A program made the translations under genes and the position numbers. Below the pieces are notes generated by a model that worked only from the letters and a program-made list of their open reading frames with translations, was not told where the DNA came from and did not search any database. A stretch of 64,000 bases of DNA from a virus (lineage: Duplodnaviria > Heunggongvirae > Uroviricota > Caudoviricetes), in IMG/VR virus record IMGVR_UViG_3300029286_001043, positions 28,228 to 92,227 of that record; one strand, 5' to 3'. Every line of letters starts with the position of its first letter. Position 1 is the stretch's first letter. Shown here one piece after another: positions 2,012 to 27,598 of the stretch.

Positions 2012-2024
2012 ATAGAGTAATTTG

Positions 2025-3041
2025 TTAACTTAAACCAGAAATCGTTCCATGACAGAACGCGCCTGGATTAATTACCTTGTACGCAGCAGAAGAAAGAAAT
2101 CCCTTCTGAGCCTTCAAGTCTGTAGCAGTAATCAGCGTAGGTGTAGTGAACAGAGGAATATCATTTTTGTTACCATCACGAATGATGGGCTTAGTGATTT
2201 CTAGTTCTCCTAAGCTCCTAATATCGCTACTAGGATCAGACTGTACCATATTCTCTTTCGAGATTTGTCGATTACAGTCGTTGAACCTCTTGTCATTATG
2301 AAAATTAACAATCTTTGTTAACAAACTAACTCTATTAGAATCTACTAATTCGGATTCCCAAATAATAAGTAAATCATATCCGTGATCTTTAAAAAATTTT
2401 ATTCGATCAAATTCAGACATAATATTTGGAAATTTATTAGCATCATGCCAATAGTCGCCGAACATATCAATCATTTTGTTATTATTAATTGATATAATAT
2501 CCGGATGTCTATTACCGACTAACTTTCCGCCTTTCGGATAATTTAATTGATAACAGCCAGGTAAAATTGATTCCAAAATATTAATAAGATAAACTTCTTT
2601 ATCATTAGGGAAAGTCTTAGATGCCCGAATTACATTAGTAATACGGGTAGTATTTTTAGCAAGCTTGCTTTTAATCTTAGCACGTACTTCCGGCCTTTTA
2701 GCTGGATTCTTATCCCCAATCATCCTAAGAGGTGTATGTTCTGCACAATAAGTTGAATCACTATATGTTCTTATTTTGCAAACTGGACAATACTGCCAAG
2801 TATCTTTATACTCTTTCCCATCCCTATGTAATATCATATTTGTTATCATTTCTAAAGAATGTTTCTTACCATAAAATGGATTATTTTCACCTGTTAATTT
2901 GTTAACTCGATCATCTGATGTAAATTTAGTTATTCCATATAATTTAGTAGCTTCATCTTCAGTTATTTTATGTTTTCTTAACAAATGTATCTGCAAGAAA
3001 TCATATCTACTATCGCATATAGGACAACTTAATTTACCCAT
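2025..3041 (-). CDS. homing endonuclease-like protein (NUMOD3-like repeats + Vsr/DUF559-like PD-(D/E)xK nuclease domain) with C-terminal 44 aa duplicating the MCP C-terminus
   Basis: Motifs ENNPFYGKKHS and GDKNPAKRPEVRAKIKSKLAK (NUMOD3-like). HPDIISIN...MFGDYWHD...LLIIWESEL matches the PDF / IEVDGxxH / VLRFWE pattern of Vsr/DUF559 nucleases. The last 44 aa (IPLFTTPTLITATDLKAQKGFLSSAAYKVINPGAFCHGTISGLS) are 43/44 identical to the C-terminus of ORF 3183..4502. Confidence 0.7.
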   Translation of the reverse strand: MGKLSCPICDSRYDFLQIHLLRKHKITEDEATKLYGITKFTSDDRVNKLTGENNPFYGKKHSLEMITNMILHRDGKEYKDTWQYCPVCKIRTYSDSTYCAEHTPLRMIGDKNPAKRPEVRAKIKSKLAKNTTRITNVIRASKTFPNDKEVYLINILESILPGCYQLNYPKGGKLVGNRHPDIISINNNKMIDMFGDYWHDANKFPNIMSEFDRIKFFKDHGYDLLIIWESELVDSNRVSLLTKIVNFHNDKRFNDCNRQISKENMVQSDPSSDIRSLGELEITKPIIRDGNKNDIPLFTTPTLITATDLKAQKGFLSSAAYKVINPGAFCHGTISGLS

Positions 3042-3182: not shown

Positions 3183-4502
3183 TTAGGATAATCCGCTTAT
3201 TGTTCCATGGCAAAACGCGCCTGGATTTATTACTTTATACGCTGCTGAACTTAAAAAACCCTTTTGGGCTTTAAGATCTGTAGCAGTAATTAAAGTACTT
3301 GTAGTAAAAAGTGGAATATACGGGCAGAATGCAAATGCGCCTTGAATAAAACTGTCACCTTTCCATCCAAAGATTATTTCAGCTGCAGATAAGAACGGAT
3401 CATGAACAACAACGCGACCGTCCAGTGTACCTAAAACATAAGGACCTGTAGGTGTAATACCGTCAAGACCGGGAGCGGCTTTAAAGTTCGGAGCCAACTG
3501 ACGAATAAGTCTTGATGTATCGTTACCGGCAATAATCCAAGAACATTGCATCCTTAATGTCTTAGCTAAGATGTTAACGTTTGCTTTTTCAACGAAATCA
3601 AGGAACTGATATTTCTTCCAAATCCATTCTGCGCCAGTAGCAACAGTAGCGGAGAAATCGCCTGGAGTAGTAGCACAGCCAGTACCAGTTGAAGCATCGT
3701 TGATCAAGTCGATACCTAAGTGGTCCATCGTAACACGAACTTCTCCACCTAAATATTTTACTACTTCGTCTTCAAGAGAAAGACCATGAGCCTTCTGAAG
3801 ATCAAATGCAGCAGCTAAGCTGTATTGAGCCATCAGAGGGAAATCCTCGGCAGTTACTGTCTCATAAGTTAAGTCGAAATTAACTGAAGGAACAGCAGCT
3901 GAGGTCTTTGTTTCGTAGTTGTATTTGTATGTTGCGCTACCAGATGTGATCGCGAGGTCATTTGTAATTTCAATTGCACCAGTTGTATAGTTGATTGTAC
4001 CAGCTTCAAGTAAAGAAGCATCGTCAGCAACCAATACATTCGCGCCATTATCTGTATATGTACGAGTACCACCTGCATCTACAATGGTAATAACTGCAGA
4101 ACCGGCAATTACAGGAATATAAGCTAATGTACCAGTTTTAATGTTCGCAGCTTGTCCGACTTTAGTTGTCAAAACAACAACTTCGTCCTGAACTCTCGTA
4201 GAAGCATACCTACGACCAGCCCTTGTTGTATTATGGCCAGTTTTTGCAGCCATCATATTTGAATCTGCAGCAATTGCGCCTTTAGCCTGACCATACTTCA
4301 CGTCAAGATAAAAAACTCCGCCAGATCGGCGGTCTAAAGCCTGAACAATCGCCAACTCGTTTAATACTGTGCTAGGAATAAGAGCAGCTATAATAGGTAA
4401 CTGTCGTTCTGTAATCTCTTCTTTAGAAGAGTGTCGGACTATATCATCATCCTCAAAATATTTACTAATTCTATTTTGGGAGCTGGGCGCTATTTGAAAC
4501 AT
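3183..4502 (-). CDS. gp23: major capsid protein, T4 gp23-like (HK97 fold)
   Basis: 439-aa ORF in the head module downstream of the prohead protease gene. Composition and length are typical of T4-type MCPs. The conserved C-terminal tail is duplicated in the adjacent HEG. Confidence 0.75.
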   Translation of the reverse strand: MFQIAPSSQNRISKYFEDDDIVRHSSKEEITERQLPIIAALIPSTVLNELAIVQALDRRSGGVFYLDVKYGQAKGAIAADSNMMAAKTGHNTTRAGRRYASTRVQDEVVVLTTKVGQAANIKTGTLAYIPVIAGSAVITIVDAGGTRTYTDNGANVLVADDASLLEAGTINYTTGAIEITNDLAITSGSATYKYNYETKTSAAVPSVNFDLTYETVTAEDFPLMAQYSLAAAFDLQKAHGLSLEDEVVKYLGGEVRVTMDHLGIDLINDASTGTGCATTPGDFSATVATGAEWIWKKYQFLDFVEKANVNILAKTLRMQCSWIIAGNDTSRLIRQLAPNFKAAPGLDGITPTGPYVLGTLDGRVVVHDPFLSAAEIIFGWKGDSFIQGAFAFCPYIPLFTTSTLITATDLKAQKGFLSSAAYKVINPGAFCHGTISGLS

Positions 4503-5448
4503 TATTAGACCTTTCGTCTTCAGTTTCTAGTCTCTGCACCTTACAATTACTTAATTTATTGTCCATATTATCTTGTAATTCAGACAATAGAAAGGGTAAC
4601 TGTCTTGGCTCAGGATTACCATAAAAATAATTAAAAATATCTTTAGTATATAAACCATACATTAATCCATTAACCTTGCAATAATCTCTAAGAGCATTTA
4701 ATTTCGTTATCGTTAACTTATCATTTAATAAATGTGAACCTTTTATTTCAATTATTGCAATAGTTTCATTATTCACATTTAAAATTTTAAAATCTGGATA
4801 AGTATTATGCCCGTCATATGGAATAGCAAGTTTACTGCGCTGAACTATTAATAGAGAACCTATTCGGCGTTTAAATCCATGCAAAAATTCAAGTTCTAAT
4901 CCAGAACCGTAGAATACATTATCAAAATATCCACGTTTAACCTTTCCATAAAGTGATAATGAACTTCTAAAATCAATACCTTCTTGTGATGAATTCCATT
5001 CGTTCATCTTTATGGCAGTTCTATCATGATATTCCGGATCTGACCAAATCTTTGTCATTGATTTAGACATTTTTTCTCGTTTTAATATTGCCTTTTCTAT
5101 TCCCATTTGCTCTTCATAAGATCGAGAACTCTTTTCACTTAATTGTTTTCTAATTTGCAAGGCCTTCTGGATACCGTATTGCTGTTCAAAAGTTTTACAG
5201 CGTCTTTTATCGCCAGACACTTTCCCACCAATCTTAGTAAATCCCGTTTCCATTACTGTTTTAATAAGACCGGCTCGTTGTTTAGCTATCTTCTTATTAG
5301 CGTGTTCTTCACCATATCTTTCAATATATGATACCCCAGCTAATAAATGATTCTGATAACTAATATGACAAGACCGACTACAAAACTCGCGTTTCGACGG
5401 TATTTCCTTTGAACATTGTCTACAAATATTTTTAACTTTATTTTCCAT
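4471..5448 (-). CDS. homing endonuclease-like protein (Zn finger, NUMOD-like repeats, PD-(D/E)xK domain)
   Basis: N-terminal CxxC...CxxxC. Repeats YGEEHANKKIAKQRAGLIKTV and YGIQKALQIRKQL. C-terminal YPDFKILNVNNETIAIIEIKGSHLL is a PD-(D/E)xK core. Overlaps the MCP start by 32 nt. Confidence 0.6.
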   Translation of the reverse strand: MENKVKNICRQCSKEIPSKREFCSRSCHISYQNHLLAGVSYIERYGEEHANKKIAKQRAGLIKTVMETGFTKIGGKVSGDKRRCKTFEQQYGIQKALQIRKQLSEKSSRSYEEQMGIEKAILKREKMSKSMTKIWSDPEYHDRTAIKMNEWNSSQEGIDFRSSLSLYGKVKRGYFDNVFYGSGLELEFLHGFKRRIGSLLIVQRSKLAIPYDGHNTYPDFKILNVNNETIAIIEIKGSHLLNDKLTITKLNALRDYCKVNGLMYGLYTKDIFNYFYGNPEPRQLPFLLSELQDNMDNKLSNCKVQRLETEDERSNNVSNSAQLPK

Positions 5449-5507
5449 TAGGCTTCCCTGAATTCACCCAGTTATTAAAATTGGATTACTCCAATTTGGG
5501 ACACAGT

Positions 5508-5768
5508 TTAATTACGCATCCCTAAGAAGTCGATGTTACTAGAATCAGTAGTTTCAAAAAGTTTCGAAACCCTTGATTTACCAGCATTTAACAGAGCGTT
5601 TTCTGCGCAACGAGATATGTTGTGCTTCATATTCTCTGTTAACTCTTTTCCTTGTTTCTTCATATAACCTTCAGCAGCTTTGATAATCGGTGCCCATGCT
5701 TCAGACAACGCGGTTCTCTCTGCATTCTGAGCGGCCATACGCGATTCTAATAATTCGTTGATCTTCAT
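5508..5768 (-). CDS. hypothetical small protein
   Basis: 86-aa ORF on the gene strand between the protease-scaffold gene and the HEG. Confidence 0.4.
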   Translation of the reverse strand: MKINELLESRMAAQNAERTALSEAWAPIIKAAEGYMKKQGKELTENMKHNISRCAENALLNAGKSRVSKLFETTDSSNIDFLGMRN

Positions 5769-5791
5769 TTAAATAATTCTCCTTTAATTTG

Positions 5792-8700
5792 TTATTGCCC
5801 CATTGCTCTAAAAGCGGAAGCAATTTGTTTAGATATTACTGATTCTTCAATCGGCTCGCCAACATTGATCTCGGTCACAGGATTAAAGTGTAATCCATTT
5901 CCTCTAATCATGTCTTGAACCATTTCAATAAGTTTATCTACTTCCGATACTGACTTACATGATTCGAAAAGTGTTCGAACATTGTCAGGAAGCTTCAAAC
6001 CCATTGTTTTGACCTTTGTTTCGGTATATGTCTTAACGAGCCCCATAGCGTGGGACTCTTTAAGCAATCTAATTTGCTTCTCATTTGATTCTTTAAGCTG
6101 CTTTATTTGATCTTCGATATTCTTCAATTGTTTTTCTAATTTAGATTTTATTTCTTCGGCTTTTGCTAATGCAGAAGATTTATCACCTAATTTTTCATTC
6201 AATTCTTTTATTGTCTTCTTCGATTCTTCTAATTCCCCATGCTCTTTATGAAAATTAGCAGAAACTTTCACCAATTCCGCTGTTTTTGCATCCAAATGGG
6301 CAGATACGTCTCTTAGCTTAGAAGACAAATCTGAAACATCATGCGTATAATTTGCGGATACTTCGTTAACTCTCTTCTCTAATACAGTACCTAATTCAAT
6401 TGCCTTATCCCGTTCGGCAATTAGGATTGCTTCAGAAACTTTTGTTTTAGACTCATTATTAAAACCGACCCTTAATAATTCTTTAAAAAATGCGGGGTTT
6501 TCTTTCATAATTCTCTGCATTTCTTCTTTATCTTTTTTATCTGATTCCTCATTCGCTTCCTTAGCCTCTACCGTAGTATTAACCGTCTTGATCTCGCCCT
6601 TACCGTCTTCCCTCTTCTCTTTGTACTCTTCGGCCTTCTTGTCTTTAATATCCTGTTTGTCGATAATATCTTGCTTGACAGTTTCAGGTGTTGTAATTGC
6701 CGCTTCATTCTTCTTTTCATTCATATAAGTCTCGGCTCTCTTTAACGATTCTTTATATTCCCAAACCATTGTTGAACACTCTATAATTTTTTCTTGCCGT
6801 AAATCAATAACTATATCTATCTTTTTGCCCATTTTCTTTTCTAAACTGTCAGTTATTTCAGATATTTGTCCTTGATAATCGGTAGTAAATACATTAGAAT
6901 CTATTGCAACAAAAACATAATTTTCAGGCATAAATATAATATACCCGCCTATTAAATACTTATCCTCTTTTTTATATCCTAATTCAATTAAATCCTTTTT
7001 GCCATCATAATATTCTAATTTAGCAGAGCCAGTATTATATACCCAAGTGCCAATAGGTAAAGCTCCACGTTGTACAATAGACCAGGACCTAGATAAAACG
7101 GTTTGTTTTTTCTGTTCATCAGTTAAGTCTTTAAAGTCTTCAGTTAATCCTACTATTTTAATATATGCTTGATTTAAAATCAGACTCTCACCTATCTTCA
7201 TGATCTCAGCTTCCAATCCACGTCTCTGAATTTCTTTCATCAGTGCATCGACTTCCTTGTTTAATTCTTGATGATCGTCAGAAGCCATTGATTTATACCT
7301 AGTTAATATCTCTTCATTGGACAATTTGGAAAGATCTGCAGATTCAGTAATATCCTTTTTCTCTCCCGGCCCGCCAAATTCATTCTCTAATTCAGCTTCA
7401 GTTTTATCCACCAATTTCTTAAATTCAGCAGGACTGATTCCCCTCTTATCCGCATATTTCTTGGCCAATTCCGGATCGTCTGAACCTGAATTAATATAGT
7501 CAAGAATATCAGCCGGAACTTTCTTACCTTCCACCACCTTCGATTCCTTCATCAATGAATCAGGATAATGTTTAGACATTTTATTTTTGTTATTGGCCCA
7601 GAATAAATCGGCTTGTTTACTATACTTGCCCTTCCACCAATTTGCAGCAGCAACATTCGCCTTATCTTCTGGCCATCCTAATTGAGATTGACATTCAGCA
7701 GATACTGAACCGAAATTATTACCGCCGACTCTACCTGCTATAACACTTATTTGCCAAGCTTCTTTATCGGTCAAAACTAAACTCGCCTCTTCTACCTTGG
7801 CTTCAGTTACTACCATAAAATCCTGAGCCGAATCGTCTGAATCTAATTCAACTATAACCTTATTACCGTCCGCTTTCATATGAATAATATGCTTATTGCG
7901 TAATTCCTTAAACGTAGTCTCATTTGTTTTAGCTTCATTCGACACCTTAGCTCCTATCCACTTTACCTTATTAGATTTGCAAGCCGGACAAATCATTCGA
8001 TCGTTTTGATCTACTGAAACTGCAAATATATCTCCATTCCATCCACAGTCAGGACAGAACATTTTGCAGCTTTCGTCTAACGATTCTTTCAATTCTTCTC
8101 TAGTTCGAGCAATAACCTTAGGCAATAACTCCTTCAGCAATAAAACATTGTTCTCAGGATATTTCTCCCCTATTACTTTAACTATCTCTTCATCAGTATT
8201 GCCATCTATCACCATGTCCTTTACGACCGCTTCAATATCGTCGTAAATACCTTCGTCTAACTCCTTTAATTCATCCTTTAAATCTTTGGTAATGGTTTTG
8301 ATCTTCTCAGTATCATTGTTAATCTTTTGAATATCATCTTTAATGGCCTCATCGACAATTGCAGCATCACAGCATGAACTCTTGTCATCGCCTTGAGTTA
8401 CTCGAGCCCCACATTTAGAACAGACTTTGCCATGGGCGATCTTGTTGTCGTCGTTCTGATAGTCTTCTTTTACTTCAATTTTATTCTTTAATTTCCATAA
8501 TTCACCCGATTCTAATTTAGAAATCTGACCATCGTTTTCAGCCTTTTCTATTTCATCCTCAATTACTGATAATGCCGGTCTATTTATATAATTAGGATTG
8601 GTAATCATATCTACTAATTCATCGTATCTTCTGCTTTCTTTTACTTCGACTTCGTTAGCATGCTCACATCCGCCACTACACTTCTTTTCCCCTAACTTAC

Positions 8701-9379
8701 ATTTACACTCTTTATGCTGCTTGTCTATAGAAATATCTTCTTTCAGCTTGAGTGCCTTCTTCGATCCGGCCTTTTCTAATAAAGCAATAGCAACATTTTT
8801 ATTTATAGCATGAGATTCATAATTAGTCCGTACCGCTTTAACAATATCTTCAGGTTCAGTTTTAGAACAACTAGGATCCCCAGTGTGATCAACTGTAATA
8901 AATTTATATGAATCAGGTATTACTCGACTATACTTCTCGCCCGATTCATCAACTTCTTCTGATAATTCACCATCGGCCCTAGTACTTGCTGGAACTTTTA
9001 CGCCTGCTTCATGTAAAATCCAAATGAACTTTCCAGAATCTGTAGGAAGTATATCAAAATCAGCTTTAACCTCATTAGTAGATTCATCTATAAACATATT
9101 ACTAATAACATGTGAAGTCCGATCTTTATCTAATTTAATTGAAGATTCGGCTGGATGCTCATGCTCGCCTAATATTTGTCTAGCCTTTAATTTACTTTGA
9201 AATTCGGGATCATTAAGAACATTATCCCAGACTTTCCGTCCATAAATCCGTTTATTAGCATTTTTTTCGTCAATTACACAAATAGTCCGACGAATTCTAG
9301 CCAAAATACCGGATGGCAATTTTTTAGGATCGTTCTCTAAAATTTGTGTTTCATCTAAAATTCGTTCATTTAAATTCAT
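5792..9379 (-). CDS. gp21: giant prohead protease-like protein: N-terminal T4 gp21-like prohead core protease domain fused to ~1000 aa of zinc-ribbon and acidic coiled-coil (scaffold-like) sequence
   Basis: N-terminus NANKRIYGRKVWDNVL...ILGEHEHP parallels T4 gp21 NRNKRLYPKRILEKAV...LGELNHP. Several CxxC zinc ribbons (CPDCGW...CPACK, CSKCGARV). Long Lys/Glu heptad-rich C-terminal region. Continuous 1195-codon ORF. Confidence 0.55.
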   Translation of the reverse strand: MNLNERILDETQILENDPKKLPSGILARIRRTICVIDEKNANKRIYGRKVWDNVLNDPEFQSKLKARQILGEHEHPAESSIKLDKDRTSHVISNMFIDESTNEVKADFDILPTDSGKFIWILHEAGVKVPASTRADGELSEEVDESGEKYSRVIPDSYKFITVDHTGDPSCSKTEPEDIVKAVRTNYESHAINKNVAIALLEKAGSKKALKLKEDISIDKQHKECKCKLGEKKCSGGCEHANEVEVKESRRYDELVDMITNPNYINRPALSVIEDEIEKAENDGQISKLESGELWKLKNKIEVKEDYQNDDNKIAHGKVCSKCGARVTQGDDKSSCCDAAIVDEAIKDDIQKINNDTEKIKTITKDLKDELKELDEGIYDDIEAVVKDMVIDGNTDEEIVKVIGEKYPENNVLLLKELLPKVIARTREELKESLDESCKMFCPDCGWNGDIFAVSVDQNDRMICPACKSNKVKWIGAKVSNEAKTNETTFKELRNKHIIHMKADGNKVIVELDSDDSAQDFMVVTEAKVEEASLVLTDKEAWQISVIAGRVGGNNFGSVSAECQSQLGWPEDKANVAAANWWKGKYSKQADLFWANNKNKMSKHYPDSLMKESKVVEGKKVPADILDYINSGSDDPELAKKYADKRGISPAEFKKLVDKTEAELENEFGGPGEKKDITESADLSKLSNEEILTRYKSMASDDHQELNKEVDALMKEIQRRGLEAEIMKIGESLILNQAYIKIVGLTEDFKDLTDEQKKQTVLSRSWSIVQRGALPIGTWVYNTGSAKLEYYDGKKDLIELGYKKEDKYLIGGYIIFMPENYVFVAIDSNVFTTDYQGQISEITDSLEKKMGKKIDIVIDLRQEKIIECSTMVWEYKESLKRAETYMNEKKNEAAITTPETVKQDIIDKQDIKDKKAEEYKEKREDGKGEIKTVNTTVEAKEANEESDKKDKEEMQRIMKENPAFFKELLRVGFNNESKTKVSEAILIAERDKAIELGTVLEKRVNEVSANYTHDVSDLSSKLRDVSAHLDAKTAELVKVSANFHKEHGELEESKKTIKELNEKLGDKSSALAKAEEIKSKLEKQLKNIEDQIKQLKESNEKQIRLLKESHAMGLVKTYTETKVKTMGLKLPDNVRTLFESCKSVSEVDKLIEMVQDMIRGNGLHFNPVTEINVGEPIEESVISKQIASAFRAMGQ

Positions 9380-10047
9380 GTTTTACTCCCAATTAAATTA
9401 TCTATTTCATCTTCCCAAATAAATATAACTTTATAACCGGCAGTTGTAAATGGTAGAGAATCTATCTTCTCAACTGACCGTTTATTTTCCTCAGTAATTT
9501 CTAAACCATATTTACGTAAATGCCAGTAAATACCGTGAAAAAGAGCAACGGTCTTCAATTCTTCAGAATAAGCATCCGGCGATCGACCATTTATTAAAAA
9601 CGTACAATCACCAGTATATTTAAATTTGTTATTATAAATGGTATTTAAATAATTTAAAGCTTTCCCCTCAAATATATTAGGTCTATAACTAGCTTTAAAA
9701 TATGATTGTTTTAACCATTTTTCAAGTCCGATCTTTTTTATTACCTTTTTCATACTAACAGATTTCTTTGCCTTCGAAATTATCGCCTTTTCTTCGCCAA
9801 ATCTTTTATCAAAAGACATTCCTGTTAGCCGTTTACTTTGTATTTCAGCTAATTCTTGTATTCTTTTATCCGTTTCTTTAGACAAGCCCTTATTCCATGG
9901 ATCATTTGGAAAATTATGTTTATTTGATTTCCGTTTTTTTGGACTTTGATTAAAACATATTATTCCACAAACTTGATTCTTTCGATCTTTAGGATGAACA
10001 TATTTTTTGCCACAGACAATGCATATTCGTTCATCTTTTGTGCTCAT
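9376..10047 (-). CDS. homing endonuclease-like protein (NUMOD3-like + Vsr/DUF559-like nuclease)
   Basis: CxxC...C N-terminus. DPWNKGLSKETDKRIQELAEIQSKRLTG and FGEEKAIISKAKKS repeats. C-terminal RSPDAYS...ALFHGIYWH...YKVIFIWEDEI is the same nuclease pattern as ORFs 2025..3041 and 12061..13026. Confidence 0.65.
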   Translation of the reverse strand: MSTKDERICIVCGKKYVHPKDRKNQVCGIICFNQSPKKRKSNKHNFPNDPWNKGLSKETDKRIQELAEIQSKRLTGMSFDKRFGEEKAIISKAKKSVSMKKVIKKIGLEKWLKQSYFKASYRPNIFEGKALNYLNTIYNNKFKYTGDCTFLINGRSPDAYSEELKTVALFHGIYWHLRKYGLEITEENKRSVEKIDSLPFTTAGYKVIFIWEDEIDNLIGSKT

Positions 10048-10069
10048 TTATGTTCTCCAAATTAGTTAC

Positions 10070-10288
10070 TTACTTTTCTACTGCTTTAACCTCAAGTACC
10101 TTAACTTCAGTCGCGACCTTACCCTTAGCACTTTCACCTGGAGTAAACTCAACAGCCTGTCCGTCTAATAGATTCTTGTAACCATCCATGACAATACTCG
10201 TGAAGTGAACAAAATAATCTAATTGATCCTCACCGTTTACAAAACCCCAACCTTTTTGCTTGCTGAACCATTTCACTGTACCGTACAT
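10070..10288 (-). CDS. csp: cold-shock protein (CspA family, cold-shock domain)
   Basis: MYGTVKWFSKQKGWGFV...DYFVHFTSI matches the CSD signature (GxVKWFNxxKGFGFI, RNP-1/RNP-2). 72 aa. Confidence 0.85.
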   Translation of the reverse strand: MYGTVKWFSKQKGWGFVNGEDQLDYFVHFTSIVMDGYKNLLDGQAVEFTPGESAKGKVATEVKVLEVKAVEK

Positions 10289-10314
10289 TGTTGTTTCTCC
10301 TTTACTTGCATATA

Positions 10315-10512: not shown

Positions 10513-10520
10513 AGTTCTCC

Positions 10521-11627
10521 TTACGCCTTGGACTGAATCAGACCATTCACAACTGTTATTGTGAAATCCCATCCATCGATGAAGGTACCAGTAAACCCAC
10601 TTACTGCTCCAGAATATCCTGAGAATCCAGAGATTCCAGAGTAACCTGATTTGCCAGAGTACCCACTGAATCCAGAGATTCCTGAATAACCAGAAATACC
10701 TGAGTATCCTGAAATTCCAGAATACCCGCTGAATCCAGAAATACCAGAATAACCAGAGAATCCACTTATACCCGAATAGCCAGAGAATCCAGAGATACCT
10801 GAATAACCTGAAAATCCAGAGATACCAGAATAACCTGAGAATCCACTTATACCACTATACCCGCTATAACCTGAAATTCCTGAATAGCCAGAAAATCCTA
10901 ATGTAGTAGGTTCTCCTGAAATTCCAGAGTATCCGCTGAATCCTGAAATACCGCTATATCCAGAGATACCAGAATATCCTGAAATACCGGAATATCCACT
11001 ATACCCTGAGATACCTGAATAACCAGAATATCCTGAGATTCCTGAGTATCCGGAGATTCCACTATAGCCTGAATATCCTGAAATACCCGAGTAGCCAGAG
11101 TAACCAGAGATTCCAGAATAACCACTAAATCCGGAAATACCTGAGTAACCTGAAGTTCCCGGGCTATCTCCTGAATATCCTGAAGTTCCTACTCCTGAAT
11201 AACCAGAGATACCAGAATAACCTGAGTAACCAGAAATTCCGGAGTATCCACTGAATCCTGAAATACCGCTATATCCTGAATAGCCTGAGATTCCAGAATA
11301 TCCACTGAATCCTGAAATACCTGAGTATCCGGAAAATCCTGAAATACCAGAGTAACCAGAATAACCGCTGATTCCAGAGTAACCACTTATACCACTGTAA
11401 CCTGAAATTCCAGAGTAACCTGAGATACCGGAATAACCAGAAAATCCTGAAATGCCTGAGTAACCTGAAATACCTGAGTAACCTGAGATACCTGAGTAAC
11501 CTGAGATACCGGAATAACCTGAATATCCAGAGATACCTGAATATCCTGATTCCCCGCCGGCTTGACCAGAGATTCCAGAATAGCCGCTTGCTCCTGTACT
11601 GCCTCCACCACCGTGATATATACTCAT
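10521..11627 (-). CDS. hexapeptide-repeat fibrous protein, (G-Y/F-S-G-I-S)n ~55 repeats, with a short non-repetitive C-terminal domain
   Basis: 368-aa ORF made almost entirely of GYSGIS/GFSGYS units. C-terminus AVSGFTGTFIDGWDFTITVVNGLIQSKA. Open through a ~1-kb 18-nt tandem repeat. Other frames of the repeat are also open (the 75/65/74-aa shadow ORFs). Confidence 0.65.
   Translation of the reverse strand: MSIYHGGGGSTGASGYSGISGQAGGESGYSGISGYSGYSGISGYSGISGYSGISGYSGISGFSGYSGISGYSGISGYSGISGYSGISGYSGYSGISGFSGYSGISGFSGYSGISGYSGYSGISGFSGYSGISGYSGYSGISGYSGVGTSGYSGDSPGTSGYSGISGFSGYSGISGYSGYSGISGYSGYSGISGYSGISGYSGYSGISGYSGYSGISGYSGISGYSGISGFSGYSGISGEPTTLGFSGYSGISGYSGYSGISGFSGYSGISGFSGYSGISGFSGYSGISGFSGYSGISGFSGYSGISGYSGISGYSGISGFSGYSGKSGYSGISGFSGYSGAVSGFTGTFIDGWDFTITVVNGLIQSKA
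10575..11600. repeat. tandem 18-nt (hexapeptide-coding) repeat array
   Basis: Imperfect repetition of units such as cctgaaataccagaataa/cctgagtaaccagaaatt throughout. Confidence 0.8.
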
Positions 11628-11663
11628 AGTACTCTCCCTCTTAAGAAATTATATATAAGGCCG

Positions 11664-12107
11664 TTACGCTAATGTTAAATCTACAATCGTAGCATTTGCT
11701 GCATATACTAATATAATAGATGAAACTGCTGTAGCATCGATACACTGCTTGAACCCGTCTCCGGTAATCAAACTAGTTGCCGGAGTATTTGAAGCCGAAT
11801 TGAAGAATACGTCTACCCGCCCAGTTACACAATAAATATCCAGATCTAAAGTGAAGTTTCCAGTAGGTACTGTAATTGTGTCTACTTCAGTATCGTCTCC
11901 AGTATATGATTCTGAAACTATATTGCTATTACTTGCATATGGGGCATCTGAAGTCTTCGTTATCCCCGTAGGCAAAGGAGTTCTGATTGTCTCATATGTT
12001 TCCTTTGATTCCCCGGGTTCTATTCTTGTACTTCCGACTGTTACTACTGTTGCTGTACTGTTAAGATAGGTTGGACACATGTTCAACTCCTTCTTTATGA
12101 AATTCAA
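11664..12107 (-). CDS. hypothetical protein, Thr/Ser/Val-rich (possible structural/beta-rich)
   Basis: 147-aa ORF downstream of a HEG. The start may instead be the internal MCPTYLN Met at 12080. Confidence 0.4.
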   Translation of the reverse strand: MNFIKKELNMCPTYLNSTATVVTVGSTRIEPGESKETYETIRTPLPTGITKTSDAPYASNSNIVSESYTGDDTEVDTITVPTGNFTLDLDIYCVTGRVDVFFNSASNTPATSLITGDGFKQCIDATAVSSIILVYAANATIVDLTLA

Positions 12108-13026
12108 TTAATTTTTGTTTTAATAATATTTTATCTTTTAACTCTTTTTCCCAAACAACTAAAGTTTTATAGCCATACTCACTATATTTTTGTAATCTAT
12201 TATTATCTTTTTCTTCAGAACCTGATATATTATGCCAATAATCTCCATAAAGCTCAACAATCTTCTTTTGACCGTTAATATTTATAAAATCAGGAAAGAA
12301 TCCTCCTATCATAACTTCAAACCCACCTACAAATTTGTAGTTACTAGGAAATAAATTATTTAGTATATCTAATAATTTTTGTTCTGATTTATTAATTTTT
12401 TTATTATGAGAACTAGCTTTAGTCATCATTAACATATGTTCTTTAGAATTAACTTGATTTGTTTTAGCTTCTTCCTTTTTAATTCCAGACATATTTTTAC
12501 ACACTTCATCTCGTTTTTCGGTATGTGACCAATGAGATTTGTCCCTCTTTGCTCGATATTCAGGACTTTTCCACATATTTAATCTGGCAATACTTCTATT
12601 CTGTATAGCTTCAGGAGTAGCATTACCAATTTTTCTTTTCTCTAATAATTTATCTCTTCGGATAGGATCAGACCATATTTGTTTCCAACCGAATAATTTA
12701 TAATTTATAACACACAAATGAGAACAGAATTGTTGATCAGATCGCTTACCTATAAATATATTATTACATGTTAGACATTGCTTTTCTTTTATTTTAGATT
12801 TCACATTTTCTCTATAACATTTTCGAGAACACACTTGTTTATATCCTTTAATTATATGAACAAATTTTGTAGAATTACCACATATTATACAACACCCATC
12901 TAATTCTTTCTTTAAGTATTTATCATAATAAACCCTAGAAGAAAGTTTATGCGTTCTCCATACATGTTTAGATAACCCTATTATAGTATTAAATTGTCTA
13001 TTACATATTAAACATGTACAAATCAA
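12061..13026 (-). CDS. homing endonuclease-like protein (multiple Zn fingers + Vsr/DUF559-like nuclease)
   Basis: Cys-rich N-terminus (CxxC x4). FPDFININGQKKIVELYGDYWHN...YKTLVVWEKEL nuclease core. TTG start preceded by AAGGAGAAAAGG. Confidence 0.65.
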   Translation of the reverse strand: MICTCLICNRQFNTIIGLSKHVWRTHKLSSRVYYDKYLKKELDGCCIICGNSTKFVHIIKGYKQVCSRKCYRENVKSKIKEKQCLTCNNIFIGKRSDQQFCSHLCVINYKLFGWKQIWSDPIRRDKLLEKRKIGNATPEAIQNRSIARLNMWKSPEYRAKRDKSHWSHTEKRDEVCKNMSGIKKEEAKTNQVNSKEHMLMMTKASSHNKKINKSEQKLLDILNNLFPSNYKFVGGFEVMIGGFFPDFININGQKKIVELYGDYWHNISGSEEKDNNRLQKYSEYGYKTLVVWEKELKDKILLKQKLIEFHKEGVEHVSNLS

Positions 13027-13147: not shown

Positions 13148-15424
13148 TTATTCTTTCATTGATTCCTGAATCGACTTCAGTATATCTTTATTCTCTACAT
13201 GAACTACTTTTCTCTTCGACTCATATGGCTTCTTGTCGATCTTCATATTCAAATCATTAGCTAATCTTCTGATTTCGCTATCAGCACCTTCCCATGTTTC
13301 CCAAGCTTCAGAAGGAAGATTGTCTACTACATAATCAGTTACTTCAGAATTCCCCTCTAATCCAGCCTTATGAGCCATTCTAACGAGCTCTTTGATCTTT
13401 CCTCTATACTGAGGGCCGATCGTGCGAGCTTCTTTGATCTTCTTTGAATCTCTTTCCTTCTTGCTTAATGGAGTATAAGGATAAAGTGTTCCGGTACCTT
13501 TGTCGCCATCATCCACTTTGTCTTCCTTCTTCGCTTCTTCAGTAACTATATCAGGTTCTACAACTGGAGCTACTTCCTCTTTCTTCTCTTCTCCAGGAAT
13601 ACCAGTTATAGTACGATCGATTGGTTGTACCTCAGGATTTACCGTCGTCACCTGAATTCCACCTTCTGTAGTAACGATGTTAGTTTCCTTATCCTCGTCC
13701 TTTATAATTACCTCGACATCTTCTTTCACCTGTGCTTCATTGGCCTTTTCGGCCTTGATCGGCTCTTGAACTTCTTCCTTTACCTTAGGATTATTTACAC
13801 CTGTTGATGTAATTTTGGCATGTGATAAAGCAGTCAAGACATCTAATATTCTTTTTGCTGGCATTCCAATACTTATAAGTGCTTGATTGATCTGACCCCA
13901 AGTATATGTTTCATTGTTGTCTTCAACAATCTTCTCTTCTCTTACTCCTTGCTGCATTAATACCTGACTTACATAAGGAACCAGTTCGTCATCAGCCTTC
14001 TGCTTTTCTTCAGGAGTAAGATCATTATACTTCCTCTTGAATAAATAATTAGCAATATCATCCATCAACTGCTCAGAAGTTACATTTTTTTCAATAACTA
14101 CCTCTTCTTCAATTTCTTTCTCTTCTGTCTCAGTAGGCTCGGTTGTCGGCTCTTGAGGATTCTTCTCGAGAGCTTCCTTGCGCCTAGTTAATGCGGCCTT
14201 CAACCTAGTCTCTTGTTCGGCAGTAATATCTCCCTTCGTTGCGGTCTTCTCGATTCGGTCCATTACTTCTTCGAGCGACACAGCATCTATAGCTTTGTGG
14301 ATCTTGCGAAGGATTGAAGTAGCAGTTCTAGTTACAGCTGCATTCGCTTCGTCTTCTTTCTTGCCTTCGACTATTGATTCATTAGGATTTACTAAATTAT
14401 TCACGTATTCCTCCGTCTCTCTATTCGACAAAGCACCAGAAACATTATCTAATACCTGTTGATAAATACTATTTGAATCCTTCATTCCGTTCTTCAAACA
14501 TTTATCTACAACTAATCTGATTGCATCCTTTACATTAGGGCTGATCGATTCACTAATCTTTATCTTCACTTTACCGCTCATCTCGGAATGCTCATCATTA
14601 TAATCCTTCAATGCAGCTTCAGCATTCTCTTTCTTTCTATAAGTAGCAATTACTTCTTCGCCTAATACAATCTGGAATACTTTCTCGTTTACTGACTCAT
14701 ATATCGTTAAAATCTTGGCTTCACGATTAAATTTAGCTACTTCCTCTCCTAATACTAAAAATAATATACTATTTCCAGTTTTAGAATCTTGAGTCTCTTC
14801 CCAAGTAATTCCCTTTTCCTTTAATATATCCTTTGCCTCAGCAAAATCATGACAGACTTCGGATTTAGATTCGTTTACTCTCGACTCATTTGGTACTTTC
14901 GGAGTTACTGTATTCTGAGTCGACGGTCCGGTACCTTCAGCCTTGATCTCATCCTTTACTTCAGGTACCTCTTCTTCAGGCTTTACTTCCTCTTCTTCTT
15001 TCAGGAAATACTTCTCGACTATGTCTACAGATACTGACGTCGCCTCGACCTTCTTCATCGCTGCCAATATAAATTCAGGAATGTTTGATATGTCTACACC
15101 GAGCTCAGCTGCATCGGCCAAGGTGTTCTCTGACGCGTCTATAAGTATCAGGTTGTTAACTGTACCACTTGCATCCATGTCCCGCTTCAGATAAAAATAT
15201 TGATCTGCCCCTTTTGCCCCTAAATATTCCTTCTCATCAGGAAGCTCTTCAGTAGGCTCGGTCTCAGGCTTTACTTCGTCAGTCGGCTTCTCGCCAGTAG
15301 GAGGAGTTGAACCTTGAGGATCTTCTGTCCCGCTGTCCTTTTCAAGTGGATCGACAGGCTGCTCGTCCTCAACTTCAAATAGACTCTTCATTTCCAATAT
15401 TAGATTCTTAGTTCGCTTAAACAT
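13148..15424 (-). CDS. large acidic protein (Glu/Lys/Pro/Thr-rich; candidate scaffold/internal head or decoration protein)
   Basis: 758-aa ORF with long E/K/P/T-rich low-complexity stretches in the head-gene block. No enzymatic motif. Confidence 0.5.
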   Translation of the reverse strand: MFKRTKNLILEMKSLFEVEDEQPVDPLEKDSGTEDPQGSTPPTGEKPTDEVKPETEPTEELPDEKEYLGAKGADQYFYLKRDMDASGTVNNLILIDASENTLADAAELGVDISNIPEFILAAMKKVEATSVSVDIVEKYFLKEEEEVKPEEEVPEVKDEIKAEGTGPSTQNTVTPKVPNESRVNESKSEVCHDFAEAKDILKEKGITWEETQDSKTGNSILFLVLGEEVAKFNREAKILTIYESVNEKVFQIVLGEEVIATYRKKENAEAALKDYNDEHSEMSGKVKIKISESISPNVKDAIRLVVDKCLKNGMKDSNSIYQQVLDNVSGALSNRETEEYVNNLVNPNESIVEGKKEDEANAAVTRTATSILRKIHKAIDAVSLEEVMDRIEKTATKGDITAEQETRLKAALTRRKEALEKNPQEPTTEPTETEEKEIEEEVVIEKNVTSEQLMDDIANYLFKRKYNDLTPEEKQKADDELVPYVSQVLMQQGVREEKIVEDNNETYTWGQINQALISIGMPAKRILDVLTALSHAKITSTGVNNPKVKEEVQEPIKAEKANEAQVKEDVEVIIKDEDKETNIVTTEGGIQVTTVNPEVQPIDRTITGIPGEEKKEEVAPVVEPDIVTEEAKKEDKVDDGDKGTGTLYPYTPLSKKERDSKKIKEARTIGPQYRGKIKELVRMAHKAGLEGNSEVTDYVVDNLPSEAWETWEGADSEIRRLANDLNMKIDKKPYESKRKVVHVENKDILKSIQESMKE

Positions 15425-15599: not shown

Positions 15600-15602
15600 A
15601 CT

Positions 15603-17656: not shown

Positions 17657-17689
17657 TGGTCAAAAGTGTTGACAAATGAGCTACTAAAT

Positions 17690-26184: not shown

Positions 26185-26874
26185 TTATTTTGCTTCAGGT
26201 TCTTGTCCTGGCTGTTCACTTTCAACCTCTAGTTGTTCTAGTTTTAATATTTCTTTAGTGAGATTATCTATAAACCGCTGCCTATCCATAGGAGATAACT
26301 TATCTAAATCCTTAGGCAATCCATCAACTTCATCCTTCCCTTTACCTGTCATTACAATTACATTCTGCTTTCTATTAATTACTACACTAGGATCTTGGGC
26401 TTTAGTATATCCCATCTCTTTAGCAAAAGCAATTAAATGCTTATCCTCTTCTCGAAGTTCAGTCAGCAACTCTTTCTTAATCCGATATATATCCATATAA
26501 CTAGCAATCTCGGTCTCAGCCTTCAAATGACAACCTAAACATTCATACCAATTATCTAATGAATCTTCATGTAATTTAACAGCTGAATGACAGCATACTG
26601 ATACTCGACCCTGTTCAGCACCATCCAGACTTCCTAACATTTCAAGTATTCTAATCCGACGAGCCTTATACCCAACACTGATAAAACTCATAATTGATTC
26701 AGCTACTGCATTTCGTTCAGGCGAAGTCTCGGTCTTCTTTATTTTAGCGATTCTACTTAACACATACTCTTCAGGCAACCCGACCTCTTGCAGTACTAAG
26801 CTTATATCCCCTAAATTACGAAGATATGACTTCTTTATCTGCTCGTCAACTCTAAACTTGTCAAGATTATTCAC
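26185..26874 (-). CDS. hypothetical protein, positional candidate for terminase small subunit
   Basis: 229-aa ORF just upstream of TerL with a CCHS...CLGCH metal-binding motif. No sequence support beyond position. Confidence 0.3.
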   Translation of the reverse strand: MNNLDKFRVDEQIKKSYLRNLGDISLVLQEVGLPEEYVLSRIAKIKKTETSPERNAVAESIMSFISVGYKARRIRILEMLGSLDGAEQGRVSVCCHSAVKLHEDSLDNWYECLGCHLKAETEIASYMDIYRIKKELLTELREEDKHLIAFAKEMGYTKAQDPSVVINRKQNVIVMTGKGKDEVDGLPKDLDKLSPMDRQRFIDNLTKEILKLEQLEVESEQPGQEPEAK

Positions 26875-27598
26875 TCAGATCCTCTCGATCAATAATGGCT
26901 AATACATCAACTTCATGCAAAATAAGTAACTTTTCACCATCCTTGTTTGTAATTGAATTAAACGAATTCTTACTAAATACTACCGTATCACCAACCTTTA
27001 CCGACATAGATGAAATAGTACCATCATCTAAAAGACGACCCTTCCCTACACTAATTACCTTACCCTTCGGCTGTTCTTGTTGAATTGATTCAGGTAAAGC
27101 TATTCCTCCTCGAGATTGCGTCTCAGGAGTCAATTGCTTAACTATAATACGATCCGCTAATGGTTCTATCTCCATATTCTCTCCCCTCGATACCCCCTTT
27201 ATATCCTGATACCCCATATATGGTATTCTATATGACTTGTTATCCGTTCCTTCAACATCATAGCGCCAAGGTATTCCTTTGTCATATACCACTATATCAC
27301 CGACTTCAATTTCAGGTTTAATAAATATCTTTCCGTTTCTAAGATATCCAGGCCCAACTGTTAATACCATACCACAATCACGTTCAATATTTGACTGAAC
27401 TGAATCAGGTATAATAATTAAACTTCGGCTCCTTCGAACATATAGCGGATATATAAATACAATATCCCTTACCGCTTGCAGCGGAAAATTAACGCCGCCA
27501 CACGCCGGACAAACAAATGGGACATTATACTTATTTACATTACCCTTTATCTGAGACTTTACTTTTTCTGAGTCGAGTCCACAAGTATTACAATTCAT
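26867..27598 (-). CDS. groES: co-chaperonin: N-terminal Zn ribbon + two tandem GroES (Cpn10) domains (gp31 functional analogue)
   Basis: C-terminal EIEPLADRIIVKQLTPETQSRGGIALPESIQQEQPKGKVISVGKG...VKVGDTVVFSK...GEKLLILHEVDVLAIID is a canonical GroES. The preceding ~100 aa (LIIIPDSVQSNIERDCGMVLTVGPGY...EIEVGDIVVYDKG) repeat the same pattern. N-terminus has CNTCG...CPACGG. Confidence 0.7.
   Translation of the reverse strand: MNCNTCGLDSEKVKSQIKGNVNKYNVPFVCPACGGVNFPLQAVRDIVFIYPLYVRRSRSLIIIPDSVQSNIERDCGMVLTVGPGYLRNGKIFIKPEIEVGDIVVYDKGIPWRYDVEGTDNKSYRIPYMGYQDIKGVSRGENMEIEPLADRIIVKQLTPETQSRGGIALPESIQQEQPKGKVISVGKGRLLDDGTISSMSVKVGDTVVFSKNSFNSITNKDGEKLLILHEVDVLAIIDREDLSE

Follow-up and report, generated by a model that had tools for sequence, protein, structure and literature searches.

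In bacteriophage T4, the prohead protease gp21 (212 aa) and the scaffolding protein gp22 (269 aa) are products of separate genes, a point correctly made in the original prediction on the locus described here, and the internal proteins IPI-III and Alt are also made separately. During self-activation, gp21 removes nine N-terminal residues ending in LIE (LIE9). In phages P2 (gpO) and lambda (C/Nu3), the maturation protease enters the procapsid as part of the scaffold or nested with it, and 'protease-scaffold' fusions have reportedly been annotated in actinophages. The delivery logic of these systems is the one proposed below for a protein of 1195 aa, although their proteases belong to other folds or families (ClpP/S49- or HK97-type) and they comprise a few hundred residues without a hypervariable array.

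Herpesviruses make protease-scaffold precursors, namely UL26 of HSV-1, which contains the VP24 protease and the VP21 scaffold, and UL80 of CMV. In UL26, as in the phage protein, an N-terminal assemblin-fold protease is followed in a single ORF by a linker and by a scaffold whose extreme C-terminus binds the capsid (scaffold and binding being putative in the phage); the herpesvirus linker is, however, short, whereas the phage middle is a long string of hypervariable modules. The roles of UL26, UL26.5 and VP24 have been described (PMC4611051).

A gp21-related catalytic domain followed by a C-terminal region is likewise present in phiKZ gp175 and SPN3US gp245 (MEROPS S80), this region, which is proposed to bring the enzyme into the prohead, being removed by autoproteolysis after Glu (PMC5694885). 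Both are nevertheless much shorter than the protein studied here, lack a scaffold-sized coiled coil or modular insert, and cut at A/S/G-x-E. Shorter fusions also exist in cultured phages: gp062 of Bacillus phage vB_BceM-HSE3 (559 aa) and the head maturation protease of Acinetobacter phage Ab1-TPeters (465 aa), for which no experimental study was found in the searched literature. These score 89.7 and 70.7 bits, respectively, against the N-terminal profile of the family described below, and each gene immediately precedes that of the capsid protein; among cultured phages, HSE3 also gives the best E-value for the capsid protein. An acidic linker leads in both to a coiled-coil C-terminus, whose similarity to that of the family is marginal (hhalign E 0.009, probability 4%), and neither has a Cys knuckle, zinc-ribbon modules or a long mosaic middle.

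One reading frame in a T4-type head module

The window analysed is a stretch of 64,000 nucleotides from IMG/VR record IMGVR_UViG_3300029286_001043 (Caudoviricetes). The 1195-aa ORF originally reported in it, with the strings NANKRIYGRK and LGEHEHP, was confirmed from ATG to stop on the minus strand; its ATG shares a 4-nt overlap with the stop codon of an upstream endonuclease-like ORF, and a Shine-Dalgarno-like GGGAG lies 5' of it. A single chain comprises the protease, 736 aa of variable sequence and a coiled-coil block of 221 aa, where T4 has separate gp22 and internal proteins. The gene and its surroundings are organised as follows:

5792..9379, minus strand: whole gene, fusion of protease, variable middle and coiled coil
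8720..9379, minus strand: predicted T4 gp21-type (Peptidase S77, assemblin-fold) serine protease domain, aa 1-220 (AF2 fold, Foldseek, profile, tblastn)
6458..8665, minus strand: hypervariable mosaic middle, aa 239-974, a string of small modules (coverage, phmmer, length range)
5795..6457, minus strand: conserved C-terminal block, putative scaffolding part, aa 975-1195 (coverage, HMM, helix, heptads)
3183..5768, minus strand: Gp23-type major capsid gene, directly downstream, interrupted (phrog_138 major head protein, PF07068)
5508..5768, minus strand: 86-aa ORF for the capsid N-terminus, aligning to the N-terminus of the intact capsid genes in loci L004/L005
4471..5448, minus strand: endonuclease-like ORF inside the capsid gene
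3183..4502, minus strand: remainder of the capsid gene
13148..15424, minus strand: 758-aa acidic mosaic ORF of the head module, from a second family that exchanges modules with the protease middle

The place of the protease in the head module is the same as in T4, with a T4-type portal (PF07230) and a Gp23-type capsid protein, presumed to be both partner and substrate of the fusion protein. The capsid propeptide carries a conserved [LI]FE-TTDSS motif, and a group I intron match was obtained at the interrupted capsid gene. The order protease, then Gp23-type capsid gene, recurs in the window, in L004/L005 and in L008-L010. No gp22-like ORF was found between portal and capsid gene, nor any separate gp22-sized gene between protease and capsid in the window and two related contigs.

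The fusion is present in 41/41 relatives, at lengths of 533-1640 aa, and both its N and C domains fall in one ORF in 21/21 relatives from IMG/VR; a 1074-aa entry of this type is already in UniProt/BFVD. The original prediction, which regarded a protease-scaffold fusion as atypical, was right relative to T4 but not within the clade, where fusion is the rule. It had also named two conditions that would undo it, an assembly error joining two genes and an N-terminus with no significant match to prohead protease models; both were checked, and neither holds. The long frame might in principle owe its length to a faulty join during assembly, to a lost stop codon, or to an intein or homing endonuclease lodged in a 210-aa protease gene. 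In favour of such an artefact or selfish insertion are features of the same genome, which has three intein stretches in the portal, the interrupted capsid gene and several free-standing endonuclease genes, and aa 371-474, which weakly resemble repeats of the endonuclease-like protein P0024 (E 5e-6). Nevertheless, independent assemblies from ENA, Logan and JGI yielded 9 contigs that encode the identical protein, and in 40 further relatives one ORF spans the same two termini, which makes this reading extremely improbable and, for practical purposes, already refuted. As to an intein or homing-endonuclease insertion in particular, no Hint, LAGLIDADG or HNH domain was detected in the protein (Pfam, E <= 1) with the library that finds them in the portal, and the 1195-aa sequence has no HN[CST] end.

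The N-terminal protease domain

The following residues and motifs were located in the conserved N-terminal block:

9365..9373, minus strand: LNE, aa 3-5, conserved N-terminal [LIV]-x-E, candidate autocleavage/activation site
9155-9157, minus strand: His75, catalytic candidate (alignment to the T4 triad)
8984-8986, minus strand: Ser132, catalytic candidate (same alignment)
8888-8890, minus strand: Asp164, catalytic candidate (same alignment)
8666..8725, minus strand: putative His + Cys4 knuckle, aa 219-238 'DKQHKECKCKLGEKKCSGGC', closing the block (conservation)

The AF2 model of aa 1-220 (pLDDT about 85-92) retrieved from the PDB, as the sole Foldseek matches at E <= 1e-3, chains A-C of 5JBL, the structure of gp21 (E 1e-5, prob 1.0, TMt 0.68, 170 columns), and its top matches in BFVD are annotated prohead proteases. 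The family profile scores 34.6 bits against T4 gp21, aligning H85/S140/D168 of T4 to H75/S132/D164, which are invariant among 21 sequences, while tblastn of the N-terminus found annotated phage head-maturation proteases at E down to 3e-12. The gp21-like character originally ascribed to the N-terminus is thus borne out by the fold, by the family profile with its aligned triad and by tblastn, at an identity to gp21 of about 20%. An alignment to S77 models, proposed together with that claim, gave the protein itself a PF03420 (S77) score below the curated cut-off (23.8 vs 27 bits, E 3.5e-5, aa 39-146); PF03420 matches 14/21 relatives (E <= 1e-3), and phrog_207 'head maturation protease' matches 17/21. 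As modelled, aa 1-220 is a gp21/assemblin-fold protease with an intact His75-Ser132-Asp164 triad, the triad of gp21 being of the same His/Ser/Asp nature (PMC5694885).

In T4, phiKZ and SPN3US the proteases cut after Glu in short motifs, such as ITE and LTE in T4 Alt (PMC5694885). The N-terminal [LI]-x-E and an expected cleavage after Glu are further points shared with gp21, the motif [LIV]xE being present at the N-terminus of 41/41 relatives, vs 13.1 expected. Directly after the Cys knuckle, at the place corresponding to the release site behind the protease of herpesvirus precursors, [LIV]xE is not enriched (10/25 vs 8.1 expected).

This knuckle, absent from T4 gp21, belongs to the three Cys4 motifs that had been noticed at the outset and are indeed present, taking up 12 of the 18 cysteines in tight clusters (225/227/234/238, 320/323/336/337 and 442/445/464/467). 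Their patterns are conserved in relatives, and the labels zinc ribbon and knuckle are putative. In the knuckle, H222, C225 and C234 are invariant and C227 and C238 nearly so, the pattern occurring in 25/41 relatives.

The variable middle

Both ends of the protein are conserved in the relatives (n=41), being 50-72% identical even where the middles are unrelated, whereas the middle is mosaic, with lengths between 77 and 1137 aa. Here the per-residue coverage, taken over 20 relatives, falls from 20 to 0-6; aa 469-673 and aa 749-846 have no counterpart within the family, and an exhaustive phmmer search with aa 246-880 against 1.84e9 representatives gave only 7 matches. The following modules can be told apart:

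8360..8464, minus strand: putative Cys4 module 2, aa 306-340 (DYQNDDNKIAHGKVCSKCG...SSCC), recurring in some relatives, low pLDDT
8081..8359, minus strand: four-helix module, aa 341-433, common to 4-6 relatives
7949..8068, minus strand: putative zinc-ribbon module 3, CxxC-x18-CxxC, aa 438-477 (pLDDT 72-85, beta strands)
7787..7936, minus strand: 39-aa module TTFKEL...DFMVVT, aa 482-531, between EAKTNE and EAKVEE, with a copy in P0022
7376..7519, minus strand: small confident helical module, aa 621-668, with ESKVVE(617) before and ITE(679) after (AF2 model)
7136..7342, minus strand: helical module SADLSKLSNEE..., aa 680-748, common to P0002 and P0009
6746..7060, minus strand: module of aa 774-878, shared with the N-terminus of P0025
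6521..6697, minus strand: Lys/Glu-rich low-complexity linker, aa 895-953 (sequence, AF2 model)

The hypervariable mosaic middle, which the first description of the locus did not mention, is the most unusual property of the protein.

Several of these modules are shared with the second head-module protein family and with a free-standing zinc-ribbon protein. The copy of TTFKEL...DFMVVT lies in P0022, a relative of the 758-aa ORF, with ESKVNE on both sides (61% identity over aa 464-532), and P0025 (441 aa) matches, at its C-terminus, the large mosaic protein whose gene lies upstream of the protease gene in L004. Module 3 is 64% identical to the free-standing 96-aa protein P0023 and is only weakly matched by Pfam Zn_ribbon_8 (aa 442-473, E 0.088). 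The four-helix module has weak similarity to the N-terminal repeats of P0024, module 2 follows KLKE or EVKE in the relatives that have it, and the SADLSKLSNEE... module follows ESKVNE in P0002.

KINE, KVNE and KESK are over-represented 10-20-fold in the middles, and linkers of this type stand on both sides of an exchangeable module; their codons differ between copies, so that the constraint acts on the protein and not on the DNA. Within one sub-lineage, the module boundaries are marked by E[SA]K[IV]NE linkers, which fit T4-type [LIV]-x-E cleavage; the canonical ESK[IV]NE is restricted to that sub-lineage and is degenerate in the 1195-aa protein (EAKTNE, EAKVEE, ESKVVE). Plain [LIV]xE is uninformative because it is too common: the protein has 48 such sites, and its low-confidence segments, which account for 40% of its length, contain 38% of them. 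Module edges defined by BLAST show only a weak tendency to lie closer to motifs than random positions do. Release of the domains by cleavage is plausible, and the enrichment tests within the 1195-aa protein itself were negative.

The middle is hypervariable among related phages, as T4-type internal proteins are, and is physically linked to the putative core part. In T4, such proteins are directed to the core and undergo trimming by gp21; one of them, IPI, blocks a restriction enzyme once injected (PMC9958956). By analogy, the modules could be functional cargo like IPI-III and Alt, loaded through the covalent link between protease and scaffold and cleaved free. They would stay in the head after maturation and be injected together with the DNA, for instance to counter host defences or to bind nucleic acids, and their hypervariability would reflect an arms race. 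Such a role would agree with the contrast between conserved ends and unrelated middles, with the movement of modules between two head-module protein families, one module being also free-standing, with the small, confidently folded nature of several of them, and with the conservation of Cys4 patterns and of linker motifs at the protein level. We nevertheless hold it to be rather unlikely: no module has a recognised function, with DUF5661 and DUF7130, in two relatives, as the sole matches; much of the middle is predicted to be disordered or of low confidence; and middles as short as 77 aa show that any cargo is dispensable for assembly.

Those length differences between conserved ends would also suit a passive spacer, that is, a recombination-prone linker that gains and loses functionless domains, does no more than add bulk or determine how far the protease can reach, and is degraded and expelled along with the core. 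Low confidence or disorder marks about 56% of the middle, which includes the K/E-rich low-complexity stretch, most of the middle has no relatives among the 1.84e9 representative proteins, and the heavy invasion of the genome by mobile elements suggests high local recombination. Set against this are the conservation of Cys4 patterns and module folds across distant relatives, linker motifs kept through synonymous codon changes, and, as a sign of selection, a module with 61-64% identity to its copies in other proteins; a mere spacer is a possibility that we entertain only tentatively.

The C-terminal block and the proposed maturation route

Two further features were placed at the C-terminal end:

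5903-6028, minus strand: most conserved core, Y1118..R1159, helix-turn-helix in the model
5870-5878, minus strand: VTE1170, followed by a short tail

The block is covered by 17-19 of 20 relatives, and its HMM matches 21/21 IMG/VR ORFs. As to the coiled coil, which the original prediction had recommended checking, the AF2 model has one helix of 152 residues (aa 975-1126; pLDDT 60-78 over the block), the strongest 3.5-residue hydrophobic periodicity of the protein lies in this part, with a heptad peak at 1001-1150, and there are weak matches to coiled-coil Pfam families. The 'acidic heptad-repeat tail' described earlier is thus upheld as to its heptads and helix but not as to its acidity: it is highly charged and not net acidic, the net charge of consecutive 50-aa windows being -2, 0, +4 and -3. 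Over its full length the protein is acidic (230 D+E vs 189 K+R).

The C-terminal profile scores 0.0 bits against T4 gp22, and searches against PHROGs and PDB profiles returned generic coiled-coil matches and no annotated scaffold family. Taking into account that a gp22-like gene is absent between the protease and capsid genes, a protease-scaffold fusion is the best reading, and the coiled coil is probably the capsid scaffold, as argued from architecture and gene order and not from homology. The earlier interpretation therefore stands for the protease and the fusion, has architecture and gene order behind its scaffold part, and was mistaken about the acidic tail.

The same block could serve only to anchor the enzyme, another protein, such as that of the 758-aa ORF (13148..15424), being the scaffold. 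The C-terminal region of SPN3US gp245 is inferred to target that enzyme and to be removed by autoproteolysis, and the SPN3US protease autoprocesses its own C-terminus (PMC5694885); here, too, a large acidic protein is conserved upstream in the head module, and no gp22 homology was found. However, known targeting peptides are much smaller than a 150-residue coiled coil with a 70-residue conserved end; in every locus examined, the place of gp22 just ahead of the capsid gene is vacant; and the mosaic protein encoded upstream, with a hypervariability of its own (441-1263 aa), is unlike a core scaffold. A simple targeting tail thus seems to us improbable.

Near the C-terminus, [LIV]xE occurs at positions -46..-28 in 36/41 relatives, vs 22.6 expected, as a motif only. 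This candidate site would lie about 25-45 residues from the C-terminus, similarly to the maturation site of herpesviruses, although the latter are cut at Ala-Ser and the phage protein would be cut after Glu. Herpesviruses also have a nested in-frame gene for the scaffold part, whereas none was detected in the phage ORF, whose C-terminal half has no internal ATG with a Shine-Dalgarno-like sequence and so no start that would raise the share of scaffold-only product. This bears on the fusion reading, against which it counts that the fusion gives one protease per scaffold molecule. Protease:scaffold ratios are roughly 1:10 in T4 and herpesviruses.

On balance, we regard it as likely that the fusion is the head-maturation protease of an uncultured T4-superfamily phage, joined in one polypeptide with a scaffolding (core) function. 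The 150-residue coiled coil and the helix-turn-helix end would co-assemble with the capsid protein, and the protease, together with the modules of the middle, would thereby enter the prohead. Once the shell is completed, the protease would activate itself by a cut after the N-terminal LNE, parallel to T4 gp21, and would then cut after Glu in [LIV]-x-E motifs. These further cuts would sever the capsid-binding end at VTE1170, degrade the coiled coil and part the small modules of the middle from one another. Herpesvirus UL26, with its protease, linker and scaffold, would thus have its layout repeated in a phage, where a cassette-like insert is added.

The open reading frame and its N-terminal protease

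The gene lies on the minus strand (5792..9379) and, in line with the original prediction of a large open reading frame with a gp21-like N-terminus, runs from ATG to stop over 1195 amino acids. A GGGAG is located 8 nt ahead of its ATG, which shares nucleotides with the upstream frame's stop codon. Independent ENA, Logan and JGI assemblies have 9 contigs with an identical protein and the same neighbours, so that the frame is not an artefact of two genes joined by an assembly error. An intein or endonuclease insertion within it was ruled out, as no such domains appeared in a Pfam search. At least three Cys4 motifs had been predicted, and 12 of the 18 cysteines indeed form three clusters (225/227/234/238, 320/323/336/337 and 442/445/464/467).

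The assignment of the N-terminus to the gp21-type proteases is secure. PF03420 (Peptidase_S77) matches aa 39-146 with an E-value of 3.5e-5 and 23.8 bits, below the 27-bit cut-off; among 21 relatives, 14 match this family and 17 match phrog_207 ('head maturation protease'). In tblastn searches against deposited phages, aa ~9-210 match annotated head-maturation proteases (26-35% identity, E down to 3e-12), with no match past aa 211. Single-sequence phmmer with aa 1-248 against the PDB gave nothing relevant, and the full-alignment profile recovered T4 gp21 (5JBL) only at E 0.14, amid coiled-coil noise; since neither search picked out gp21 clearly, a fold search was needed. In an AF2 model of the full-length protein, obtained with a 21-sequence alignment as input, aa 1-220 have a pLDDT of 85-92, and all PDB matches at E <= 1e-3 belong to 5JBL (its three chains; E 1e-5, probability 1.0, target-based TM 0.68, 170 columns). 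T4 gp21 scores 34.6 bits with the profile of the family N-terminus, and the profile alignment pairs His75, Ser132 and Asp164, invariant in the 21 relatives, with T4 His85, Ser140 and Asp168. The gp21 triad is His/Ser/Asp (PMC5694885). Fold, triad and family matches agree on the gp21 type, even with the protein's own PF03420 score under the cut-off.

The head module and the C-terminal block

The head module is of the T4 type, its portal gene matching PF07230, and the frame downstream of the protease gene is the major head protein (phrog_138, PF07068 Gp23). Positions 1-20000 of the window have no match at nucleotide level among deposited phages. The features of the region are the following, L004 (215 kb) and L005 being related contigs with protease genes of the same family.

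2025..3041, minus strand: endonuclease-like ORF containing NUMOD3, with the C-terminal ~45 residues of the capsid protein copied at its end
3183..5768, minus strand: capsid gene, interrupted
3183..4502: ORF resuming the capsid sequence from '...QLPIIAALIPS'
4415..4674, minus strand: group I intron match between the capsid parts (E 9e-6, 33.8 bits, under the gathering score of 50)
4471..5448: endonuclease-like ORF between the capsid parts (weak TnsA-like N domain, phrog endonuclease)
5508..5768: 86-aa ORF aligning with residues 1 to ~85 of the intact L004 and L005 capsid proteins
9376..10047, minus strand: free-standing endonuclease-like ORF, overlapping the protease start codon by 4 nt
10070..10288, minus strand: 72-aa cold-shock-domain protein (PF00313), among the head genes
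10521..11627, minus strand: 368-aa ORF inside the head module, almost all GYSGIS-type hexapeptide repeats, with locally raised GC (0.41 vs about 0.34)
11664..12107, minus strand: small conserved ORF with N-terminus MP.Y.N..., w/o family match
12061..13026, minus strand: free-standing endonuclease-like ORF (DUF559, phrog endonuclease)
13148..15424, minus strand: 758-aa mosaic protein
17690..23125, minus strand: portal gene, 1811 aa, with three intein splicing stretches (PF14890, E 1.8e-65) and HNH endonuclease domains
26867..27598, minus strand: 243-aa protein whose C-terminal half contains a GroES co-chaperonin domain (phrog_3188, E 1.9e-33)

The two free-standing endonuclease-like ORFs, both with N-terminal Cys-rich motifs, flank head genes. 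The two copies of the capsid 3' end (2041-2161 and 3199-3319) have 78% DNA identity over 121 nt and one amino-acid difference, and the duplicated end has thus been synonymously recoded; the 2025..3041 ORF has the look of a homing-endonuclease insertion that came with a copy of the end of its target gene. The portal sequence suggests three inteins in one protein. The small MP.Y.N... ORF (131-218 aa), present in the window, also occurs just upstream of the protease gene in the relatives (L004 9594-9989, L005 9325-9981).

The gene order in T4 is 21 (212 aa), 22 (269 aa) and 23. In L004 and L005 the long protease gene is directly followed by an intact Gp23-type gene and then by a gp13-like gene, and no gp22-type gene was found in the window from portal to capsid gene, including the protease-capsid interval. 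At the end of the long protein, aa 975-1126 are modelled as one continuous helix with the strongest 3.5-residue hydrophobic periodicity of the whole sequence, and attract weak matches from coiled-coil Pfam families. The most conserved C-terminal part follows (Y1118-R1159, consensus Y..TK.K.MGL.LP....TLLE.....EEVD..I), modelled as a helix-turn-helix. The heptad character of the predicted acidic heptad-repeat tail is thus retained, but not its acidity: the tail is highly charged w/o being net acidic, and it is the whole protein that is acidic (net charge -41).

No specific match of the C-terminal block was found to T4 gp22, PHROGs, Pfam or PDB sequences, as is common for scaffolds, and the block is therefore assigned as a scaffold from its architecture and the order of the genes. 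A nested scaffold-only gene was ruled out, there being no internal start with a ribosome-binding site (SD+ATG). Taken together, a protease-scaffold fusion, as originally predicted, is the best-supported explanation of the sequence data, though not a proven one: its protease half is secure, and its scaffold half is putative, with no match to gp22 or another scaffold family. The C-terminal block of the protease gene is a concrete scaffold candidate for this clade, whose contigs reach about 215 kb.

Shorter proteins with the same protease domain, acidic linker and coiled coil are encoded by two cultured phages, Bacillus phage vB_BceM-HSE3 (gp062, 559 aa, annotated as hypothetical) and Acinetobacter phage Ab1-TPeters (465 aa), in both cases directly upstream of the capsid gene. 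The best E-value of the capsid protein among cultured phages is with that of HSE3; the C-terminal block has no significant homology to the HSE3 and Ab1 tails. Metagenomic 'prohead core protein serine protease' entries in BFVD have 598, 653 and 1074 aa. Sinorhizobium phage Phosso carries a plain 210-aa enzyme. For herpesviruses and some small phages, it is textbook knowledge that the maturation protease can be delivered as a scaffold component. In T4-type heads, protease, scaffold and internal proteins are encoded by separate genes, and we know of no description of such delivery there. The overall layout of our protein is that of herpesvirus UL26. The UL26 protease has the gp21 fold (PMC5694885), and UL26/UL26.5/VP24 are treated elsewhere (PMC4611051).

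Conserved ends and a mosaic middle

A word-indexed search retrieved 20 relatives of 670-1640 aa, and an IMG/VR scan added 21 further loci, all of which (21/21, 533-1545 aa) carry the N- and C-terminal profiles in a single ORF. The size that had been called atypical is thus unusual compared with T4, but falls inside the continuous size range of its own clade. Among 185,579 bacterial and archaeal species genomes, the only match was L032 (CAIKWG010000043.1, 1573 nt, 49% identity over aa 1-242), a contig from an 'uncultured archaeon' MAG bin that is probably a mis-binned phage fragment, w/o a clue to the host.

Coverage by the 20 relatives is complete for aa 1-245 and reaches 17-19 for aa ~1000-1195, falling to 4-6 for aa 263-433 and to none for aa 469-673 and 749-846. 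The conserved blocks are separated by 77 to 1137 aa, the 717 aa of our protein being the seventh longest distance of 41. Two relatives, P0003 and P0004, have 68-72% N-terminal identity, yet unrelated middles.

Word-indexed searches with aa 434-1003 and with a C-terminal alignment missed even known family members and are no evidence of absence; for the middle, exhaustive phmmer was used instead. Against 1.84 billion representative proteins, aa 246-880 matched seven and no more. Three of these show portable modules to be the building blocks of the middle: aa 439-477, with the third Cys4 motif, are 64% identical to the free-standing 96-aa P0023, aa 464-532 are 61% identical to part of P0022, and aa 774-878 match the N-terminus of the 441-aa P0025. 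Taking into account that P0022 is related to the 758-aa ORF, and that the C-terminal domain of P0025 is common to a 1263-aa protein upstream of the protease in L004, modules are exchanged between two different head-module proteins.

The second of these is itself hypervariable and very acidic (758 aa in the window; 1263 and 1236 aa at L004 5790-9581 and L005 5163-8873), and has no match in Pfam or PHROG. In the relatives it contains zinc-ribbon modules and ESK[IV]NE-type linkers, and it has modules in common with the middle of the protease family. The new element is this cassette-like middle, with modules also found in a second head protein; within a literature coverage that was incomplete, no account of such a protein with a hypervariable modular insert was found.

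Linker motif, possible processing and the role of the middle

Several four-residue strings are over-represented in the middles of the first 21 relatives.

Four-residue strings in 11,034 residues of middle sequence from the first 21 relatives
String; observed; expected
KINE; 11; 0.52
KVNE; 9; 0.56
KESK; 12; 1.08

Seen with their neighbouring residues, they form E-S-K-[IV]-N-E, directly ahead of recognisable modules. The module TTFKEL...DFMVVT has ESKVNE on either side in P0022, and lies between EAKTNE and EAKVEE in our protein. The mosaic proteins encoded upstream in L004 and L005 have the same motif, and its codons vary from copy to copy, so that what is constrained is the protein, not a DNA repeat. 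The canonical form is limited to a subset of relatives, being degenerate in our protein, and the window's own proteins hold degenerate copies only.

The motif ends in [IV]-x-E. T4 gp21 sites are of an [IV]-x-E-like type, such as ITE and LTE in Alt, and the characterised gp21 relatives all cut after Glu (PMC5694885). Activation of T4 gp21 entails the loss of nine N-terminal residues (PMC9958956), and these end in LIE. In the family, [LIV]-x-E, mostly LNE behind leaders of variable length, opens the conserved domain in 41/41 members (13.1 expected by chance), and a second one lies 28-46 residues from the C-terminus in 36/41 (22.6 expected; VTE1170 in our protein). The capsid propeptide contains a conserved [LI]FE-TTDSS. 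Self-activation, detachment of the capsid-binding end and the separation of modules from one another are all consistent with these motif data.

The plain [LIV]xE occurs 48 times in the protein, with no enrichment in its low-pLDDT linkers (38% vs 40%). BLAST HSP starts lie within 8 aa of an [ILV]xE in 66% of cases, a weak excess over 46% at random positions, and have no association with K[ILV]NE; nor is a release-site motif enriched after the Cys knuckle (His plus Cys4, aa 219-238) that closes the N-terminal block. Since negative motif tests stand alongside the positive ones, cleavage is something that we infer.

The middle may be either released cargo or a disposable spacer. As cargo, the hypervariable array of cassettes, zinc ribbons among others, would be carried into every prohead by its covalent attachment to the maturation protease on one side and to the scaffold on the other; the protease would free the cassettes by cuts at Glu-ending linkers, hundreds of copies of lineage-specific small proteins would stay in the head and be injected along with the DNA, and cassettes would be traded with the second head polyprotein, the 758-aa ORF family. 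We consider such a self-loading, self-unpacking cargo polyprotein unlikely. If true, it would constitute a modular system for evolving injected effectors, and a polyprotein alternative to the capsid-targeting-sequence mechanism of T4.

A second point of importance is the middle, which varies from 77 to more than 1100 residues while the ends are conserved, and whose modules are found again in another head protein. If it is only a spacer, the size range of the family with its conserved ends would be a natural experiment on the extra mass that a scaffold tolerates. If the modules are set free and stay in the head, phages would have in them a new means of loading and diversifying the proteins that they inject, and they would also offer an engineerable route for packaging foreign ones.
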